A stretch of DNA of 64,000 bases from Alphaproteobacteria bacterium (GCA_015062235.1 SUUZ01000003.1:94736-158735), one strand, 5' to 3'. Counted from the first letter of the stretch, positions 1 through 18,311 are shown. The notes: generated from the letters alone by a model not told the origin. Numbers and translations are program-made.

Positions 1-1
1 C

Positions 2-106
2 ATTATTGAAACTACTTTGACTATTTATGAAGAAAATAAAGAACAAAATGTAGATGAAGTAATGTTAAATATTGAAAAAAATGTGGTAAATTACCTAAAA
101 ATGTAA
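2..106 (+). CDS. 3' end of an unidentified gene (partial; start lies before the window, or a gene remnant)
   Basis: Frame +2 is open from the window edge to TAA at 104-106 (…IIETTLTIYEENKEQNVDEVMLNIEKNVVNYLKM*). No recognisable domain. Confidence 0.25.
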   Translation: MIETTLTIYEENKEQNVDEVMLNIEKNVVNYLKM

Positions 107-249
107 AAGATATTATTTAAACTTCAATCACCGAATAATTACCAGCACAATATTTAACAATAGCGAAGTTTCTTTTATTAAGGGCTTGGAATACTACAAT
201 CCACGCCCAATGATTATTAAATACAAAGTCAATTAGCAGACAAATTTAA

Positions 250-678
250 GCCTATATTGAATTAAAAACAAAAGAAGATGCTTTGCTTGATTTTTATTTA
301 GAAGGAAAACTTCCTCAAGCAACATATGAAGCAAAACAAGAGCAAATTGCGAAACAGCATCAAGAATTAGAAGCAACTGCAGAAAAATATAAAACTATAG
401 ATAGCACAATGAAAGAAAGCATTTGTAAAGTTATGTCTATGAGTTGCAATATCTCTGAAATTTTTGATAAAGCCTCACCTACTCGCAAAAATCAGCTACT
501 AAAAATCTTAATATCTGACTGCAAACTTAATGGTAAAGTGCTTGAATATAAAGTAAAAGCTCCTTTTGATAAACTAATCCGATGTAATGACTACAAACAA
601 TTATCTATTGTTGTCATAGATAATTTAAATGAGTTTGAAGGCGTTAAGGTGTGTGGAAAACATCTTATAGTGGTTTAG
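250..678 (+). pseudogene. Recombinase-like C-terminal fragment; probable remnant of a serine-recombinase-type gene
   Basis: The ORF opens directly after a stop at 247-249 and has no catalytic N-terminus. 'LLDFYLEGKLPQATYEAKQEQIAKQHQELEA' resembles the coiled-coil 'LY LDG-I…Y…K…EL' segment near the C-terminus of large serine recombinases. It sits at the edge of a low-GC islet. Confidence 0.35.
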
Positions 679-766
679 CAACCAAGCCCAACACACAAAA
701 CCCCACATTTAATCCTAAAAAAATCAAATTAATCGCAATTTGTGCTAAATTTACTCACAAAATAGC

Positions 767-795
767 TTGACAATTCAAAATTATTCTTATATACT
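767..795 (+). promoter_or_regulatory. Consensus sigma70-type promoter
   Basis: TTGACA (767-772), a 17-nt spacer, then TATACT (790-795). This is a near-perfect -35/-10 match, about 140 bp upstream of the GIY-YIG gene. Confidence 0.45.
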
Positions 796-935
796 ACCAT
801 CTGTATTTACAAATACAAAAAAAGCCACCCAGCAAGGTGGCTCGGAGTTATATTAACCCCTGGAACGGTTTAAATGTAACTCCATGTGTTTAATTTGTCA
901 ACAATTATGTTGACACTAAGTAATGGAGAATAAAT

Positions 936-1253
936 TTGAATAATTATAATAATCGGGTCTCCTATTCCCCTCAAAATAGGAACTATATTCCAACATCATC
1001 TGGTGTATATATCATCACAGATACTTGGGGCAATGTTAAGTATGTTGGTCAAGCTAATGACTTAAGACGCCGTTATGAAGAGCATCTTTCTTATCAAGAA
1101 CCAAATATTGAGTTAAGAAATTTCCTCAGGAATAACTATGCTTTCTTTCAATATGAAGTAATATACTATCAGGGTGATCGTAACTCTGAGGAGTTACGCA
1201 TATATCGTATGTATAGACCGCCTTTTAATCACATGCAACCTCCAGCGGCTTAG
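936..1253 (+). CDS. Small stand-alone GIY-YIG nuclease-domain protein (YhbQ/UPF0213-like)
   Basis: 'GVYIITDTWGNVKYVGQANDLRRRYEEH' is a classic GIY-x10-YIG…R…E motif. The protein is 105 aa and consists of the nuclease domain only. It uses a TTG start. Confidence 0.7.
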   Translation: MNNYNNRVSYSPQNRNYIPTSSGVYIITDTWGNVKYVGQANDLRRRYEEHLSYQEPNIELRNFLRNNYAFFQYEVIYYQGDRNSEELRIYRMYRPPFNHMQPPAA

Positions 1254-1265
1254 CAAAAAAAATAA

Positions 1266-1300
1266 AGGGGCTAAAAATTCGTTTTTTAGCCCTAGTTCAC
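1266..1300 (+). terminator. Rho-independent terminator after the GIY-YIG gene
   Basis: GGGGCTAAAAA-ttcg-TTTTTAGCCC hairpin followed by a T-rich tract. Confidence 0.55.
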
Positions 1301-1358
1301 CATTTTTTAACATTTTTAATATATTCTTTGTTTGATTTTAACACAGAAAGAGGTCAAT

Positions 1359-2666
1359 ATGTTAGTTGAATTCAAATTTAAGAACTTTAGAAGCTTTAAA
1401 AACGAAGCTTATTTTTCTATGAAACCTTCTTCATTAAATGGTAATAATAAAAATACAATATTAACAAACTTAAAAAAAATTCCTCAAATATACAGAACTG
1501 CGGGTATTTTTGGAGCAAATGCATCTGGTAAATCAAATATAATCAAAGCTTTTCAGCTTTTTAAATTTTTAATTAAAACAAGTTTCAAATCTGAAATAAA
1601 CGACTTAATTAATGAAGATAGATATGTTCTAGATGATGAAAACACACATAAACCAACTTCTTTTGAAATCTCATTTATTTACAATAACAACCTTTATAAA
1701 TATGGAATAACTTATGTACCTTCGGAAATATTAAAAGAATTTTTAACATACACAGATATATCTGAAAATGGGTCAGCTCGTGAAAATATTGTATTTTTAA
1801 GAGAAGCTGGAAAAGAATTAAAAGCTAAAAACATATCTCAATCATGGATTAATGAACTGGCTCCTAATAGGCTTTTCCTCTCAGAAATTGTTAACAATCG
1901 ACGTAGCACTGATGAACATATTATGAATACATATAACTATATTGTAAATAATATTAATGTGACTAATAATAATTCATCAGAAAAAATTTCATTCGAAATG
2001 TTACAAGGTAATGAAGGACAATTAATTATAGATTACATAAAAGAAGCTGATTTAGGTATAGAAGATATTTCTATTAAAGAATTATCCCCTGAAGATATTA
2101 TGGAAGATATAAAAAATGATAAAAACAAGAATAGTAGAGATTTTGCTGAACGCCTAATTAAAAATATATTATCAGGAGAGGCAAAAGTTTTTGATATAAA
2201 AGTATCTCATAAAACGGAACAAGGAATCATAAAACAATGTTATCTAGAAAATGAATCCGAAGGAACTAAAGTTTTTATTGCTTTTGCAGCTCCAATTATA
2301 AACACTTTAAGGAAAGGTGGTGTTCTATTTATAGATGAATTAGATGCTTCATTGCATCCTCATCTTGTTAGGTATATTATAAATCTATTTAATAATGTAA
2401 ATATAAACAAAAATAATGCGCAGCTTATTTTTACTTCATATGCTTTTTATTTAATGGATGGAGATGCTCTTTCTAGAGATCAAATTTGGTTTACAAATAA
2501 AAACAACAACTATTGGTCATCTCTACATTCTTTACGAGATAAAAATGAAAAACGCAAAAACAAATCATTTATAGATGCATATCTAAATGGTTTGTATGGT
2601 TATACTCCTAATATTAATATTGAAAATTTTGTTAAGCTATTTAACAACTATGAAAACAACAAATAG
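1359..2666 (+). CDS. ABC-type (AAA_21/AAA_15-like) ATPase with no fused nuclease domain
   Basis: ATG at 1359 follows an AAGAGG ribosome-binding site; the ORF track's TTG at 1332 is less likely. Walker A 'GANASGKSN' lies near the N-terminus. Walker B/D-loop 'VLFIDELDASLHP' and 'QLIFTSY…LSRDQIWF' lie at the C-terminus. This is the SMC-like split ATPase architecture typical of defence-associated ATPases. Confidence 0.7.
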   Translation: MLVEFKFKNFRSFKNEAYFSMKPSSLNGNNKNTILTNLKKIPQIYRTAGIFGANASGKSNIIKAFQLFKFLIKTSFKSEINDLINEDRYVLDDENTHKPTSFEISFIYNNNLYKYGITYVPSEILKEFLTYTDISENGSARENIVFLREAGKELKAKNISQSWINELAPNRLFLSEIVNNRRSTDEHIMNTYNYIVNNINVTNNNSSEKISFEMLQGNEGQLIIDYIKEADLGIEDISIKELSPEDIMEDIKNDKNKNSRDFAERLIKNILSGEAKVFDIKVSHKTEQGIIKQCYLENESEGTKVFIAFAAPIINTLRKGGVLFIDELDASLHPHLVRYIINLFNNVNINKNNAQLIFTSYAFYLMDGDALSRDQIWFTNKNNNYWSSLHSLRDKNEKRKNKSFIDAYLNGLYGYTPNINIENFVKLFNNYENNK

Positions 2667-2711
2667 TTAATTAGTCCGTGTATTACAAGGTGCTTCCAGC
2701 CAGAGTTCAAA

Positions 2712-2740
2712 AGTCGTCAGAAATGGCGACTTTTTCTTTT
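2712..2740 (+). terminator. Rho-independent terminator after the ATPase gene
   Basis: AGTCG-tcagaaatgg-CGACT hairpin followed by TTTTTCTTTTATTTT. Confidence 0.5.
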
Positions 2741-2865
2741 ATTTTCAAACATTTAAGCTGCCTCGAAGATGAATATATTTTGAAGGCTTGTTTTACAACA
2801 TCTTCGAAATCACTTCTATAGTTTTCAATAACTTAGTAAATTTTAACAAAAATATCACCCTAGAT

Positions 2866-3729
2866 TTATAGTTTTCTTACTCCAACAGACATTGTCATCT
2901 TGTGCCTTTCTTTAGGTGCTAAAACAACAAAATTACTCCCTTGATTAGCAGGTTCAACACATATAAATTTTTTATATTGTCCTTCACTCATTTCAGCTAG
3001 ATCTTTATTAGGATTCCAAATAACCGTAGAATTTGAATCTGTTTTTTGTAATGTTATAATACGATTTAATTTATTATCTACGATTTCAATATCTTTAGTA
3101 TGATTAAAAAATGCGACATCAACTTCGCCCTTAATTTCTAAGTCTTTTTCTTGAGTGTAAATTTTACCATCTAATGAATTATGATATTGATGCCCTAACA
3201 AACCTTTAATTACAACATCATCTCTATTCCCAACATAAAAATAAGCATGCAACGCCTCACTAAACCTAAACTCTTTATTGCCATTATTAGTTGTCTCTAG
3301 ATAACATTCCAACTTATCAGTAATTTTAATATTGAAACTAACATCCACATCAAGATTAAATTTTGCATCTGGTTTCAAAAACAAATTAACTTCTATTTTT
3401 TCTTCATCCACTAAAATGTCTTGAACATCCCAAACAGATAATCTTGCAAAGCCATGTCTTGGAAAATGGTTGTTTAATGTTTCCTCTGCAAAACGAGGCC
3501 AACAAACAGGTATTCCTCCCCGAATAGCTTGTATTTTATCAAACTTATTTAAATCTCCCAACCAAAAAACATCATGTTTTTCTGTTTTTGGTCGATATGA
3601 TACAATGTTTCCTCCAAAAAGAGATATTTTGCATTCAGCTTTTTTATTACTCAATTTTATAAAAGAGTTTTTATTAAAAATCATATTTTTGCCTTTTACG
3701 TAAATTACAACAATTATATCATCAGGCAT
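2866..3729 (-). CDS. yeaD: D-hexose-6-phosphate mutarotase (glucose-6-phosphate 1-epimerase, YeaD family)
   Basis: 'IRGGIPVCWPRFA…HGFARLSVW' and the overall length match the aldose-1-epimerase-like YeaD family. Confidence 0.7.
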   Translation of the reverse strand: MPDDIIVVIYVKGKNMIFNKNSFIKLSNKKAECKISLFGGNIVSYRPKTEKHDVFWLGDLNKFDKIQAIRGGIPVCWPRFAEETLNNHFPRHGFARLSVWDVQDILVDEEKIEVNLFLKPDAKFNLDVDVSFNIKITDKLECYLETTNNGNKEFRFSEALHAYFYVGNRDDVVIKGLLGHQYHNSLDGKIYTQEKDLEIKGEVDVAFFNHTKDIEIVDNKLNRIITLQKTDSNSTVIWNPNKDLAEMSEGQYKKFICVEPANQGSNFVVLAPKERHKMTMSVGVRKL

Positions 3730-3859
3730 GACCTCATTTTATGTCAACAAATTTTATCTTTTAATATACAGAACTTCACCAATAAAAAACTTGATTAATT
3801 ACTAACAATAGTTAAAATACCTGACAGTTTTTCATAATAATAAATAAAAAGGACAAAAG

Positions 3860-4276
3860 ATGACTTGGTTTCTATTTGCTTTAGGAGCTGCATTATTTGC
3901 AGCACTTACTTCAATTTTAGCCAAAATAGGTTTAGAAGGAATTAGTTCAAATGTCGCTACAGCAATTCGCACAATTGTTATATTAGCCATGTCTTGGGGT
4001 ATTGTTTTCTTTACAGGATCTCACAATCAATTAAGCTCAATATCTAGCAAAAACTGGTGGTTTTTAATAGCTTCTGGCATTGCAACAGGAGCATCATGGC
4101 TCTGCTATTTCAAAGCATTGCAAATAGGTGATGTTTCAAAAGTTGTTGCAATTGATAAATTTAGTTTAGTGCTAACTATCATATTATCTGCAATAATCTT
4201 AAGCGAAGTAATGACATTAAAAGTAATAGTTGGATGTCTATTAATCACAGCTGGTACTCTTTTAATGATTTTATAA
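3860..4276 (+). CDS. EamA-like small membrane transporter (4-TM, DMT superfamily)
   Basis: 138 aa, four hydrophobic helices, EamA-type glycine/alanine-rich TM segments. Confidence 0.5.
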   Translation: MTWFLFALGAALFAALTSILAKIGLEGISSNVATAIRTIVILAMSWGIVFFTGSHNQLSSISSKNWWFLIASGIATGASWLCYFKALQIGDVSKVVAIDKFSLVLTIILSAIILSEVMTLKVIVGCLLITAGTLLMIL

Positions 4277-4316
4277 AAATAAAACAACCTTTATCTTAAA
4301 TAGGCTAATTATCATC

Positions 4317-4997
4317 ATGGATATATATCAAGATATACGACAAGTTTTAATTGATAACGCTGAAACTTGTTATAAAAATTTTCTAATAAAACTTATTCCT
4401 AATTGTTCCAATATTCTAGGAGTTAGAATACCTTTTTTAAGAAAAATAGCCAAACAAATATGTTCAAATAATTGGCAATCATATATATATCATAATCCTA
4501 TTTTTTTAGAAGAAACTTTATTGCAAGCTATAATCATCGGTAAAAAATCTCAAACCATTAGTGATTTCAACAATATTAAAAACTTTATTCCCAAAATAAC
4601 CAACTGGGCAATTTGTGATACTTTTTGCTCAAGCTTAAAATTTATAAAAAACAATAAAGATTATTGCTTAATATTTTTAAAACCTTACCTATCTTCCTCA
4701 AAAGAATTTGAATTACGCTTTGGCTTAGTGATACTACTAAACTATTTTATAGAAGAAAAATATCTACCACTAATTTTCAAAACACTCGATAGTTTCAAAA
4801 ATAATCAATACTATGCTCAAATGGCTGCAGCTTGGCTTCTTTCTTCTTGCTTTATAAAATTTCCCAATCGAACCTTAATTTACCTAAAAAAATCTCAACT
4901 TGATAAAACAACTTACAATAAATCTATTCAAAAAATTATTGAATCTCAACAAGTAGACAGGTCATTTCATCCCTTACTGAAAAGTATGAAACAATAA
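4317..4997 (+). CDS. DNA alkylation repair protein (AlkD/AlkC-like HEAT-repeat glycosylase family)
   Basis: 'NILGVRIPFLRKIAK' and the helical-repeat composition are typical of PF08713. Very AT-rich. Confidence 0.5.
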   Translation: MDIYQDIRQVLIDNAETCYKNFLIKLIPNCSNILGVRIPFLRKIAKQICSNNWQSYIYHNPIFLEETLLQAIIIGKKSQTISDFNNIKNFIPKITNWAICDTFCSSLKFIKNNKDYCLIFLKPYLSSSKEFELRFGLVILLNYFIEEKYLPLIFKTLDSFKNNQYYAQMAAAWLLSSCFIKFPNRTLIYLKKSQLDKTTYNKSIQKIIESQQVDRSFHPLLKSMKQ

Positions 4998-5058
4998 TTA
5001 TAAATGACATAAAAAAGCGGCCCACTAATGGACCGCTATAATAAGTCATTATTATATT

Positions 5059-7022
<1,964 letters not shown>

Positions 7023-7143
7023 TTTTAGTACTCCATTGTATATTATAACTAAACCTTTAGTTAGTTATCAAAAACGTCTTTGTCAAGAGAACCAATAAAA
7101 AAAGTTGCCCTTTATAAAGGGCAACCATAAAAAAGTAAATGTA

Positions 7144-7887
7144 TCAAACACTTTTCTTTATTGTTGCAACAATTTGAACCACCGCTGAAACAACAAAACT
7201 TACAATCAATAAAAATGAGAACAACATCACACTTACAAAGTATACCCAAGCTTCAGGATATACCAACATAACAGGACGAGCAATAGTCGAAGCCCATCCG
7301 TCTAAAGTAAATACTTGAAGCAAAGTAAATATAGCTGCTCCTAAATTACCAAATATCGAAAAAGTTTCACCATAAAGACTAACTGCAATTATCCCAAAGA
7401 CATAAAAAGATACAATAAATATAACCAAAAAAGAAATAAAAGCTGGTAACAACTCAATAAATACTTGTACTAAGTTATTCATTTTGGAAAAACGATTTAC
7501 ATATTTAAACAACCTAAACAGACGAAATGTTCTCAATACAATAAATGCACTCATAACAGGCAGTGATGAAACAACAACTATAACCAGATCAAAAACATTC
7601 CATCCTGATTTAAAAAATTTTCCTTTTAAGGCAAAAATTTTCAAAAACATTTCCGCCATAAAAATTCCCATAAAAACCCTATCTAACAAAAACAACCCAT
7701 TATCAAAATAAAATTCCATTGTTGGCGAAGTCATCAAACCTAAAATAACAGCATTAGCCAAAATAACTGCCATTATGAACATATCAAAACTAAAACCTGT
7801 TACTAATTTCGCCAACCTGCGTTGATCATCGTTATAATATAGCGATGATATAATTTTCTTTGATGATGACTTATTTTTTTCAACCAT
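7144..7887 (-). CDS. Single-domain voltage-gated cation channel (NaChBac/BacNav family)
   Basis: Six TM segments. The S4 voltage sensor 'LRTFRLFRLFKYVNRF' has R/K at every third position. The pore region 'FTLLQVFTLDGWASTIARPVM' aligns with NaChBac 'TLESWAS'. The start ATG at 7887 follows a GAGGAG ribosome-binding site. Confidence 0.75.
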   Translation of the reverse strand: MVEKNKSSSKKIISSLYYNDDQRRLAKLVTGFSFDMFIMAVILANAVILGLMTSPTMEFYFDNGLFLLDRVFMGIFMAEMFLKIFALKGKFFKSGWNVFDLVIVVVSSLPVMSAFIVLRTFRLFRLFKYVNRFSKMNNLVQVFIELLPAFISFLVIFIVSFYVFGIIAVSLYGETFSIFGNLGAAIFTLLQVFTLDGWASTIARPVMLVYPEAWVYFVSVMLFSFLLIVSFVVSAVVQIVATIKKSV

Positions 7888-10935: not shown

Positions 10936-11637
10936 TTAAAAATCAGAAATAAGTCCATGTTCTGCAAAAGAAAAATAATTTGATGGTGTAATTATAATAT
11001 GCTCATGAAGCATTATGTCTGCAGCCTCGCAAGCCTTTCTCACTCTTTTAGTTACCTCAATATCATTAGTCGATGGACGTGAATCTCCTGACGGATGATT
11101 GTGAACCATGATCACTCCAACAGCATTATTAGATAACGCTTTTGCCACTACATCTCGATGATGAATACATACCGACGACACACTTCCTCGTTGTAATATT
11201 TCATTACCTATAACCCGTAATTTTGCATCAACATATATAATTCTAAACTCTTCCACATCGCTATATGCCATTGAACAGCGACAATATTCAAGTAAAACAT
11301 CCATTGTTGCAATTATGGGAGTATCATCAAAAGCCAAATTCTGCCAAGATAGTTTCTGCGCAGCAAATTCTATAAATTTTATCAGTATTGCGGTATTATC
11401 TTTTATCCCTTTAACATCTGTTAGTTTACTTATTGGCGCAGACACAACTTTTGCAAAAGAACCAAATTTTCTAATCAATACCTTTGCCAAAGGTTTAACA
11501 TCTTTCCTTGGTAATGCATAAGTCAGAAGCATTTCTAAAGCTTCATAATCAGCCATATCGCTACCTAACGACCTTAAAAAACGTTCTCTTAATCTTTGAC
11601 GATGTCCAACATAATCATGGTTTTCTTTTTCCATCAT
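10936..11637 (-). CDS. radC: RadC-family JAB/MPN domain protein
   Basis: 'HNHPSGDSRPSTNDIEVTKR' is the JAMM-like motif of the RadC/UPF0758 family. Confidence 0.85.
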   Translation of the reverse strand: MMEKENHDYVGHRQRLRERFLRSLGSDMADYEALEMLLTYALPRKDVKPLAKVLIRKFGSFAKVVSAPISKLTDVKGIKDNTAILIKFIEFAAQKLSWQNLAFDDTPIIATMDVLLEYCRCSMAYSDVEEFRIIYVDAKLRVIGNEILQRGSVSSVCIHHRDVVAKALSNNAVGVIMVHNHPSGDSRPSTNDIEVTKRVRKACEAADIMLHEHIIITPSNYFSFAEHGLISDF

Positions 11638-16469: not shown

Positions 16470-18311
16470 CTAATCAAGACTCTTAAGAATATACCCACTT
16501 ATCCTCTCTGAATAAAAAGATGGATCAGAAATTGGTTCTCCCTCAGCAACCTTAGCTTGATCCAATAAAATACGAGAAATCTCTTTTACCTTCTCAGCAT
16601 TAGTATCAACCATTACCATATCCGCAAGCCTAATAATTAATGGATGATAAGGATTTAATTCTAATATTCTGGTAGATGCAAAAGCTGTCTGTTGTTGGTG
16701 GTTTCTCATTAACCTTTCAAGATGCAAACTCATTTGTCCATTTTCCACCGTGATACTCACCGGAGATGCTGTCAATTTTTCAGTTGTTACAACCTTTGCA
16801 ACATCTTCTTTTAAAAACTCAGCCATAAATTCTGTTAGCTGTTTTAGACTACCATCATCAGCCTTTTTTTCATCCCTTTTCCAAGTCATATCAATATCTG
16901 CTTGTGAAATATGTTTTATTGCAAAATTCTTATAACTAGGCAAAACTTGTGGCCAAAACTCATCAATAGGCTCATTCATTAATAAAACCTCAATTCCTTT
17001 TTGCTTAAATGCTTCTAGTTGAGGACTATTTCGCAAAATATTTATATCATCACCTGTAATATAATAAATGGCTTTTTGCTCCTTATTACAGCGACCTATA
17101 TATTCATCTAAATTAGTCAATTTTTCCATATCTGCTGTCGAATAAAAATATGAAATTGCAGCTATCTCTTCACGATTCTTGAAATCTTCATAAATGCCTT
17201 CTTTTAAAACAATCCCAAAACTCTTCCAAAACTCCATATAATCATCATAATTTTTACTACGTTTTTTTAGCTCTTTTAAAATCCTATTAACAGTACCCGC
17301 CTTAATTTTTTCCATAAGCGGAGAATTTTGCAACATTTCCCTTGATATATTTAATGGTAAATCTGCACTATCAATAACACCTTTAACAAAACGCAAATAA
17401 TTAGGCATTAATTGTTCTATTTTATCAGAAATAAATACCTTATTAATATAAAGCTTAATTGAATTCTTTTTATCTGGTTGAAATAAATCATATGGAGCTT
17501 TACCTGGGATAAATAACAAACCACTATACTCTATATTTCCTTCTGCCTTAAAATGAAGTGTCATCCACGGATCATCAAAATTATGCGAAATATGCTGATA
17601 AAAATCCTTATATTGATCCGTTGTTATTTCTGCTTTATTTTTCATCCACAATGCAGAACCTTTATTTATAGTTTCTTCTCCTGCTTCCCCTAAATCAAGT
17701 ACTATTGGATAATCTATATGATCTGAATATGTCCGTATAATCTGTCGTAAATAAATAGTATCAACATAATTTTCTTCACCTTTTTTCAAAAACAACTTAA
17801 TTTCCGTACCATTTGATTGTTTTTCTGCTTCACTTATTTCAAAACCATCGATTCCATTAGATACCCATTTCCACGCCTTACTTTCGTCAGCCCTTTTTGT
17901 CAGAATTTCAACTCTTTCAGCAACCATAAAAGCAGAATAAAAACCAACTCCAAACTGACCAATAAGTTCACAAACAGAACCATTATCTGACGCATTTTTA
18001 ACAAAATCAGCTGTACCAGATTTAGCTATTGTACCAAGATGAGTTATCAAATCATCTTTGCTCATCCCGATTCCATTATCTGCTATTATTAAAGTTTTTT
18101 CTTTAGCACTAGGCGTAATTACTATTTTAAAAGCTCCTGATTTTTTAGCTATATCAGGATTTGTTAGAGCCAAATATTTTAATTTATCACAAGCATCTGA
18201 TGCATTTGAAATTAATTCACGTAAAAAAATTTGTTTTTCTGAATAAAGTGAATTAATAACAATATCCAACATTTTGCTAACATCTGCTTGAAAAGCAATT
18301 TTATCAGCCAT
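16470..18311 (-). CDS. htpG: Chaperone HtpG (Hsp90)
   Basis: 'LRELISNASDACDKLKY' GHKL ATPase N-terminus; 613 aa. Confidence 0.95.
   Translation of the reverse strand: MADKIAFQADVSKMLDIVINSLYSEKQIFLRELISNASDACDKLKYLALTNPDIAKKSGAFKIVITPSAKEKTLIIADNGIGMSKDDLITHLGTIAKSGTADFVKNASDNGSVCELIGQFGVGFYSAFMVAERVEILTKRADESKAWKWVSNGIDGFEISEAEKQSNGTEIKLFLKKGEENYVDTIYLRQIIRTYSDHIDYPIVLDLGEAGEETINKGSALWMKNKAEITTDQYKDFYQHISHNFDDPWMTLHFKAEGNIEYSGLLFIPGKAPYDLFQPDKKNSIKLYINKVFISDKIEQLMPNYLRFVKGVIDSADLPLNISREMLQNSPLMEKIKAGTVNRILKELKKRSKNYDDYMEFWKSFGIVLKEGIYEDFKNREEIAAISYFYSTADMEKLTNLDEYIGRCNKEQKAIYYITGDDINILRNSPQLEAFKQKGIEVLLMNEPIDEFWPQVLPSYKNFAIKHISQADIDMTWKRDEKKADDGSLKQLTEFMAEFLKEDVAKVVTTEKLTASPVSITVENGQMSLHLERLMRNHQQQTAFASTRILELNPYHPLIIRLADMVMVDTNAEKVKEISRILLDQAKVAEGEPISDPSFYSERISGYILKSLD

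Follow-up and report, generated by a model that had tools for sequence, protein, structure and literature searches.

Tandem putative mobile units beside tRNA-Gln in gut Alphaproteobacteria and their candidate GIY-YIG/AbiLi-type defence cargo

The first 2,865 nucleotides of a 64-kb stretch of alphaproteobacterial DNA (GCA_015062235.1 SUUZ01000003.1:94736-158735; all 64,000 nucleotides of it are called the window here) carry genes for a stand-alone GIY-YIG nuclease domain and an ABC-type ATPase, followed by the chromosomal gene yeaD. An earlier reading made from the window alone (the sequence-only reading) took 1-2865 to be a single decayed integrative islet. We put at about 65% the probability that two tandem mobile units lie instead beside a tRNA-Gln gene outside the window, the segment being the right-hand two thirds of the second one, and give the same figure to the whole insertion being an ~8-kb pair of integrase-less units between tRNA-Gln and yeaD. 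The inserted DNA starts ~5.4 kb before the window and has its right end within 2695-2845, and hence both islet boundaries had been misplaced. What stands of the earlier view is that accessory DNA of integrative type was inserted here and brought in the GIY-YIG/ATPase cargo, as seen from repeats at its junctions and from cargo that is not syntenic in relatives.

Three related junctions delimit two units

The sequence upstream of the window was taken from JGI 3300022660 contig Ga0216342_10000282 (175 kb), the longest of 23 metagenomic contigs on which the ATPase protein (1359-2666) is identical. The segment of that contig used here, locus L001, adds 8.6 kb upstream (window position = L001 position - 8642). 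Upstream of the window the genes are EamA, a HAD-type gene, a gene for a 536-aa protein of unknown function and tRNA-Gln(ttg) (L001 3068-3142), which ends 128 bp before the first of the core repeats described below. Unit 1 follows with a helix-turn-helix (HTH) gene, two C5 DNA methylases and a NOV_C-domain protein, and then unit 2 with a 192-aa open reading frame (ORF), a 152-aa ORF, a recombinase remnant, the GIY-YIG gene and the ATPase. Beyond unit 2 lies the flanking chromosomal gene, a yeaD-like aldose 1-epimerase (2866-3729) on the opposite, minus strand. Exact-protein look-ups of the ATPase and of yeaD gave one clonal arrangement. All six genomes that hold a yeaD relative are metagenome-assembled genomes of uncultured gut Alphaproteobacteria from human, roe deer and other sources.

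A repeat search of L001 gave three related sequences: J1 (3270-3353) just past tRNA-Gln, J2 (7128-7336) between the NOV_C and lipoprotein genes, and J3 (11337-11487, window 2695-2845) between the ATPase and yeaD. J2 is 87-90% identical to J3 in its left part and 89% identical to J1 in its right part, and the only segment common to the three is a core of ~27 bp, TATTTTTCAATAACTTAGYAAATTT. In order the junctions read B-O-P' / P-O-P' / P-O-B', and because of this pattern we propose serial integration of two circular elements. The inserted DNA is flanked by direct repeats of the attachment core, TTTTCAATAACTTAGYAAATTT, found at L001 3273, 7256 and 11464 (the last being window 2822-2843), and the core-to-core spacing gives unit lengths of 3,983 bp and 4,208 bp.

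The core occurs once in the 64-kb window, where 0.01 chance matches are expected, so in the visible sequence the junction does not behave as a dispersed repeat; nor was there a second significant junction match elsewhere in the window. A miniature inverted-repeat transposable element or repetitive extragenic palindrome (MITE/REP) was rejected as its source, since outside its single place in the window the junction was found only inside arrays of other loci. An origin from a phage or plasmid was likewise rejected: the core pattern and relatives of the ATPase are absent from viral contigs, and the junction is absent from PLSDB plasmids. No known RNA family was found for the junction sequence.

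Alignment of 17 junction copies from several loci resolved a full composite junction of ~210 bp made of four modules, which we call H (hairpin), IR (inverted repeat), C (core) and Pp (palindrome). Module H (2695-2745, plus strand) starts with TCCAGCCA, a remnant of the tRNA-Gln 3' end, and continues into a hairpin (2709-2734) that scores as a plus-strand terminator. Module IR (2763-2808) has the form TCGAAGATG-N27-CATCTTCGA; its arms AGTTCGAAGATG / CATCTTCGAACT, 25 nt apart, make a perfect 12-bp repeat in J2 and one of 9 bp in the window copy. This is the inverted repeat (2763-2771 / 2799-2807) that had been taken to close the islet. It exists, in many copies across species, but it is an internal module of the junction rather than a terminal repeat. 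In locus L007 both of its arms carry the same change (TTCGAA to TCCGAA / TTCGGA), so that symmetry is kept. Module C (2819-2845, plus strand) holds the shared core TAGTTTTCAATAACTTAGTAAATTTTA and is where the crossover would have occurred and where the inserted DNA would end on the right. Module Pp, AACCTCTGCGAATTTTTGCAAAGGTT, forms an imperfect palindrome and has the look of a terminator on the minus strand.

Homology between copies stops at a narrow set of places. Right breakpoints fall after TTTTTCAATAA(G/C) in copies L9b, L12b and L17b and after AAATTTTAAC in J3 and L4, and left breakpoints fall just before TTTTTCAATAA in L9c, L12c and J1. Among the aligned copies, junction homology, where it ends, ends in C or at its edge. 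This clustering of breakpoints is our main argument, and from it we infer that C is a site-specific crossover region.

The junction modules recur beside yeaD and tRNA-Gln in related genomes

In the closest relative, L004 (yeaD 91% identical in amino acids and 93% in nucleotides), the modules adjoin yeaD, and homology to L001 sets in precisely where H does (L001 11337; window 2695). Beyond H, L004 has a gene for a 575-aa membrane protein where L001 has the ATPase. The cargo genes and the left-flank genes are found at the yeaD locus of none of the six related genomes, and thus the expectation that the cargo would not be syntenic in relatives held. In L021 the same modules adjoin both tRNA-Gln and yeaD, the order being yeaD, tRNA-Gln, C-Pp, two cargo genes and a complete H-IR-C-Pp. 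Arrays are present in L009, L012, L017 and L038, with junction pieces 0.8-2 kb apart and one to three unrelated genes between them, among these methyltransferase, histidine phosphatase and PQ-loop genes; the junction pieces of L012 are mosaic. Between L001 and L009, H-IR-C is 88.7% identical whereas yeaD DNA is 74% identical, and a junction conserved above its neighbouring gene indicates constraint or horizontal movement.

Two further comparisons concern these loci. In L021 (1549-3305) yeaD and tRNA-Gln share a strand, yeaD being the upstream one of the two, and the array follows the tRNA; relative to yeaD the tRNA-plus-array block of L001 (3068-12371) is inverted, which suggests an inversion with endpoints at the ends of the array. 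A 254-aa cargo gene of the L009 array (16599-17529) is 88% identical to an L006 gene (6536-7470) located 0.6 kb from yeaD, the two yeaD genes being 79% identical. As the L006 copy lacks junction modules, this shared gene is neutral on cassette mobility.

The arrangement in L001 probably arose when two circular elements, each carrying H-IR-C-Pp, recombined in turn with one chromosomal site. The crossover would lie inside C, at about TTTTTCAATAA, and the likeliest cognate enzyme would be the large serine recombinase that left a remnant in unit 2. Because neither unit has an intact recombinase, the units would now be either fossils or elements mobilised in trans.

Evidence that weighs against two integrated units

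Several findings do not favour this scheme. In a tblastn search with serine recombinase queries (tyrosine recombinases were not searched for) no intact recombinase was found in either unit or in 72 kb. The sequence-only reading had looked to the upstream DNA for the rest of the element: att-like repeats are indeed there, but with these serine recombinase queries an intact integrase is not. The site of a serine recombinase would show dyad symmetry, and around C none is clear or above background. Locus L010, which has the nearest near-intact relative of the recombinase, gave no junction repeat within 7.5 kb. No empty site and no circular form was found, and all 23 contigs with an identical yeaD carry an identical island. 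The H arm starts with a remnant of the tRNA-Gln 3' end, and the crossover was possibly at the tRNA end instead.

Base composition adds only weak evidence for a foreign origin, because the flanks are equally low in GC and tetranucleotide usage is typical. The islet had been described as about 25% GC against 35-40% in the adjacent core genes. The measured value is 28.6% for 1-2865 and 33.7% for the window overall, the ATPase gene alone (25.8%) comes down to the quoted level, and the neighbouring genes are as low (yeaD 29.3%, EamA 32.9%, DNA_alkylation 25.8%). GC first rises at GroEL (37%), the low-GC tract running to about 5000. The GC profile by which the islet was to be recognized thus has no step at 2865, and the tetranucleotide correlation of the region with the 72-kb background (0.966-0.979, the mean being 0.959) is not atypical. 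In third codon positions most cargo genes have a GC fraction of 0.10-0.18 versus 0.18-0.24 in flanking genes, and the GIY-YIG gene has 0.31. GC by itself would misplace both boundaries of the insertion, which is a lesson for annotation.

These data bear directly on the single decayed low-GC islet at 1-2865, limited by the 9-bp inverted repeat and holding an orphan terminator hairpin. We consider that model highly improbable. It has in its favour the recombinase remnant, the accessory cargo and the placing of 1-2865 in the lowest 2.5% for GC among windows of equal size. The missing GC step argues against a single islet with those limits, as do the inserted DNA that runs a further 5.4 kb upstream to tRNA-Gln as two units, the position of the inverted repeat inside a repeated junction and the identity of the hairpin, which is a conserved helix of a leader RNA (see below).

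A stronger competitor is that the junctions are not recombination sites. They could be a conserved intergenic insulator, composed of two back-to-back terminators and a protein-binding repeat, that accumulates in a hotspot where cargo is swapped by homologous recombination, with the repeats and yeaD/tRNA-Gln serving as flanks. An arrangement of this type would resemble the 'minimal mobile elements' of Neisseria. The opposed terminators read from H (plus strand) and Pp (minus strand) suit it, as do the absence of an intact recombinase from the 72 kb searched with serine recombinase queries, the lack of dyad symmetry around C, the L009-array cargo gene that sits near yeaD in L006 without junction modules and the mosaic junction pieces of L012. 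However, homologous recombination predicts breakpoints spread along the repeat, and those of independent arrays lie within the same ~11-27 bp. The B-O-P' / P-O-P' / P-O-B' pattern is moreover exact, the two-sided change in L007 preserves the symmetry of the inverted repeat, and the junction is conserved above a core coding gene. We regard the insulator as unlikely, although it is the most serious of the alternatives to integration of two units through C.

The tRNA gene itself raises another alternative, that these are classical tRNA-targeting islands which crossed over in the 3' end of tRNA-Gln (CCAGCCA) and have since lost their integrase. H-IR-C would then be the native downstream flank of the tRNA, copied with each attachment site, and the breakpoints in C would be secondary. 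All H arms start with TCCAGCCA, the ~18 nt to the left of TCCAGCCA are likewise conserved among copies, and copies L12a and L21a retain a longer tRNA-Gln 3' fragment (AATCCAGCCGCCCCAGCCA) directly before H or IR, from which it follows that the H arm derived from the downstream flank of the tRNA itself. Arrays adjoin tRNA-Gln in both L001 and L021, and the intact serine recombinase of L008 overlaps a tRNA-Thr 3' end. Crossover at the tRNA end nevertheless leaves unexplained why homology starts or stops inside C beside unrelated sequence in L9b, L9c, L12b, L12c and L17b, and why J1 and J2 have high identity in C and Pp only, the hairpin and inverted repeat of J1 having diverged. We judge it quite improbable, less likely than the insulator, and retain C as the favoured crossover region.

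A large serine recombinase remnant lies beside the junctions

The recombinase-like C-terminal fragment that had been noticed at 250-678 (plus strand) without a catalytic N-terminus is just that. It matches the C-terminal part of CcrC (residues 409-505 of 558; E = 1.8e-6, NCBIfam), with homology over 259-645, and corresponds to the final ~130 of the ~530 residues that make up a large serine recombinase. The C-terminal ORF of L010, which abuts a 336-aa ORF with Resolvase and Recombinase domains, shares 63% identity with it over residues 100-228. All 64 database homologues of the remnant are short (81-230 aa), the longer ones starting with the zinc-ribbon motif of large serine recombinases. When L001 and the window were searched by tblastn with the L010 and L008 recombinases, no traces of the Resolvase, Recombinase or zinc-ribbon parts were found; the sole match was the C-terminal 259-645, and so we consider 250-678 a remnant rather than a gene. 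The same kind of search gave no similarity for the 192- and 152-aa ORFs, which had been candidates for frameshifted pieces of the recombinase and were rejected.

In three arrays the remnant lies upstream of H-IR-C in the same orientation, at a distance of 0.5 kb in L038, 0.85 kb in L012 and 2 kb in L001, and L007 has an N-truncated copy of the recombinase beside its H module. The presence of remnants beside H or H-IR-C junctions suggests that a serine recombinase was their cognate enzyme.

Comparison with L038 found that the remnant is mosaic. A 461-bp block (window 111-571, L038 9829-10289) is 95% identical; it takes in 140 bp ahead of the remnant ORF and the opening ~320 bp of that ORF, within which it ends abruptly. 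Past 571 the C-termini of the window and L038 are different recombinase variants. The comparison gave no clean insertion site for the two-gene module, since homology ends inside the remnant at 571. In L038, which comes from another metagenome-assembled genome, remnant and junctions have as their neighbour a large defence island (1-7790) that encodes a Piwi-domain protein (prokaryotic Argonaute), a DpnII/MboI-type nuclease and two Eco57I/MmeI-type methylases.

Two other recombinase genes were seen in related loci. In L010 (3020-3230) the recombinase is split into ORFs of 336 and 230 aa by a tandem duplication of ~96 nt that encodes RKMIRCKECGC...YLRCG twice, which reflects either true disruption of the gene or an error of assembly. 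L008 (18372-19994) has an intact and distant large serine recombinase of 531 aa with Resolvase, Recombinase and zinc-ribbon parts, ~8.5 kb from yeaD. Its 3' end overlaps that of tRNA-Thr(ggt) on the opposite strand, and it may represent an active element of comparable type.

The cargo of unit 2 is a probable AbiL-like nuclease-ATPase pair

Unit 2 encodes a stand-alone GIY-YIG nuclease domain of 105 aa (936-1253, plus strand; Pfam GIY-YIG 2.7e-08) that we propose as an effector. Its GIY and YIG motifs and catalytic residues (G23, Y25, Y36, G38, R45/R46, E86 and N98) are invariant in five GIY-YIG homologues, and the best match in the Protein Data Bank is the UvrC N-terminal domain (1yd6). Downstream is the ABC-type ATPase (AAA_21) of 435 aa (1359-2666, plus strand; Pfam AAA_21 2.9e-28), which PADLOC matches to AbiLi at 1.1e-81 with AriA next at 5.5e-28. 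Its Walker A and B motifs are intact; solved structures related to it by sequence or profile were not found. The predicted driver of the operon is a near-consensus sigma-70 promoter, TTGACA-17-TATACT (767-795, plus strand). This promoter had been pointed out from the sequence and is the sole 11/12 match within 1-4000, and an equivalent (TTGAC[AT]-17-TAnAnT) is found in 5/5 homologous loci.

Five loci with a GIY-YIG gene and an ATPase are known: that of the window and L027, L035, L036 and L037. In the latter four, whose ATPases are 53-71% identical to that of the window, a GIY-YIG protein of 105-127 aa precedes each ATPase, and the neighbourhoods are unrelated, with genes for methylases, NERD, RE_NgoBV and Prim-Pol proteins. 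In contrast, ATPase homologues at 46-51% identity (L029 and L032) are followed by a RloB protein that matches AbiLii. The window has no RloB partner and no room for one, because module H begins 28 bp past the ATPase stop at 2666. Given an AbiLi match and no AbiLii match, the cargo should be classed as an AbiL-like variant and not as AbiL proper. By analogy, the pair is a probable anti-phage module in which a minimal GIY-YIG nuclease takes the place of RloB. AbiLi ATPases of 51% and 53% identity to the window protein are thus paired with RloB and with the minimal nuclease, respectively, and this offers a clear instance, found in nature, of ABC-ATPase defence systems exchanging one effector for another.

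On the model of AbiL, PARIS and Septu, infection would be sensed by the ATPase, which would hold or activate the nuclease and so bring about abortive infection. AbiL, PARIS (AriA/AriB) and Septu (PtuA/PtuB) are also two-gene operons of an ABC ATPase and a small nuclease located in defence islands. The pair departs from them in that its nuclease is an upstream GIY-YIG domain of 105-127 aa rather than a downstream RloB/TOPRIM or HNH protein, and in that its operon has a conserved structured leader in front. This partner is without a specific model in PADLOC, where it gives weak matches to general GIY-YIG models only (HEase, UzuA, PDC-S14), and so current system definitions miss the GIY-YIG version. 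Literature searches returned nothing relevant on a GIY-YIG/AbiL pairing.

Two points weaken the defence reading. The H-loop of the ATPase is TSY in place of TSH (residues 359-361; window 2437-2445), a Tyr for the His that is shared with homologues P0066 and P0067 (70-71% identical), whereas TSH is retained in the relatives at 53-58%; members of the TSY subclade may differ in ATP hydrolysis. Moreover, the defence assignment is drawn from hidden Markov model matches and gene neighbourhood only.

The spacer between the two genes contains a hairpin preceded by an A-run (1268-1292). Such a hairpin follows the GIY-YIG stop codon in 5/5 loci (window, L027, L035, L036 and L037) and is a terminator on the minus strand only. 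Past it is a conserved AT-rich stretch that could be a second promoter for the ATPase.

A structured leader RNA precedes the nuclease gene

Between the promoter and the GIY-YIG start lies a 5' leader RNA of ~140 nt (796-935, plus strand) with helices at 802-817, 823-842, 844-883 and 896-915. The other copies of the leader are at L027 5411-5568, L035 2187-2346, L036 2147-2308 and L037 3399-3560. The distance from promoter to start is 140-165 nt in 5/5 loci, and the leaders align poorly in sequence yet fold alike. For the window leader the folding energy is -43.1 kcal/mol and its z-score -6.0. RNAalifold gave a consensus of five helices and 33 pairs, under which 90% of cells pair, and compensatory changes were present in 12/33 pairs. 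The 12 pairs with two-sided changes compare with 5.5±1.7 in shuffled alignments, only 2/500 of which reached 12, and with 1-3 in slid controls; this comparison is weakened in that it uses five sequences and a structure derived from the same five.

Helix 2 is the hairpin GCCACC-N6-GGTGGC that had been read as an orphan terminator acting on the minus strand. The hairpin is real, although it spans 824-841 and not 824-846, and it is a covarying helix of the leader of the operon, kept in five loci as GCCACC/GGTGGC in four and GCCATC/GATGGC in L027. A stray terminator was rejected because the hairpin shows covariation as part of the conserved leader. The motif of an A-run plus hairpin in the leader occurs nowhere else in the loci examined. 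In Rfam the leader fell below all gathering thresholds, the best being Phe_leader on the minus strand at 28 bits versus 55. The most conservative reading is that of a cis-regulatory 5' untranslated region which would tune expression of the potentially toxic nuclease, and as a covarying element absent from Rfam it offers a regulatory hypothesis that can be tested.

Relation to accreted elements, integrons and serine recombinase islands

Accretion of elements at one att site is known from the cis-mobilizable and integrative and conjugative elements (CIME/ICE) of Streptococcus thermophilus, the composite staphylococcal cassette chromosome arrays (SCCmec) built at rlmH by the Ccr serine recombinases and the tycheposons at tRNA genes. 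The L001 insertion has several features of these: head-to-tail units at one chromosomal site, direct repeats of an attachment core that bound the units, an internal junction that is a hybrid of the outer two and defence-related cargo. Like CIMEs its units lack a working integrase, like SCC it involves a large serine recombinase and like tycheposons it sits beside a tRNA gene. Unlike in those systems, the attachment sequence is long (~210 bp), built of four modules and conserved across species, the core is found 128 bp past the tRNA rather than within it, the units of relatives have shrunk to one to three genes between junction pieces, and serine recombinase queries identified no cognate enzyme. 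With tRNA islands in general it shares flanking core repeats, tRNA adjacency (L001 and L021) and cargo that varies among relatives, but not, as far as serine recombinase queries go, a functional integrase of its own. In comparison with large serine recombinases such as CcrC and phage integrases, the remnant aligns with the C-terminal coiled-coil region, but all that is left is the last ~130 of ~530 residues.

Resemblance to integrons is found in the short cargo units separated by a structured repeat holding an inverted repeat, in a presumptive crossover near the right end of that repeat and in the diverse accessory cargo of L009, L012 and L021. The differences are that on inspection the arms AGTTCGAAGATG / CATCTTCGAACT do not fit the attC core consensus RYYYAAC/GTTRRRY, that the sequence of the repeat is conserved and not its structure alone, and that gene orientation is mixed and cassettes have their own promoters. 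No IntI was noticed among the called genes of the L001, L009, L012 and L021 arrays, a dedicated search for tyrosine recombinases not having been run.

Taken furthest, these features could describe a previously undescribed, integron-like cassette platform of uncultured gut Alphaproteobacteria, in which a ~210-bp H-IR-C-Pp site lies between cassettes of one to four genes downstream of tRNA-Gln and a recombinase encoded outside the array, perhaps one of the large serine type, moves the cassettes in trans. One cassette would be a new AbiL-type system, with a minimal GIY-YIG nuclease in the place of RloB and with the leader acting as a functional RNA (sensor, antitoxin or regulator). This proposal is speculative and rather improbable. 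A trans-acting recombinase, if found, would make it a new platform for cassette exchange. The composite junction itself, whose core is mapped, whose inverted repeat is symmetric and which recurs in cassette-like arrays, provides a handle on the shuffling of accessory genes in a clade known only from gut metagenomes.

Other genes of the insertion

The window begins within the cargo of unit 2, at the 3' end (window 1-20; L001 8204-8662, plus strand) of the 152-aa ORF, to which no function was assigned. A truncated gene end had been proposed at 2-106. That frame is merely 43 open codons, and the called 152-aa gene ends at 20 in another frame; the open frame may possibly be the original C-terminus of the 152-aa ORF, displaced by a frameshift. 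The product of the neighbouring 192-aa ORF is by sequence a lipoprotein, with a signal peptide that ends LIGC. Unit 1 (L001 3534-7039) encodes an HTH_3 controller, two overlapping C5 cytosine methylases and a 363-aa NOV_C-domain protein with a weak match to PADLOC PDC-S36, and judged by this predicted gene content it is a compact restriction-modification-like module.

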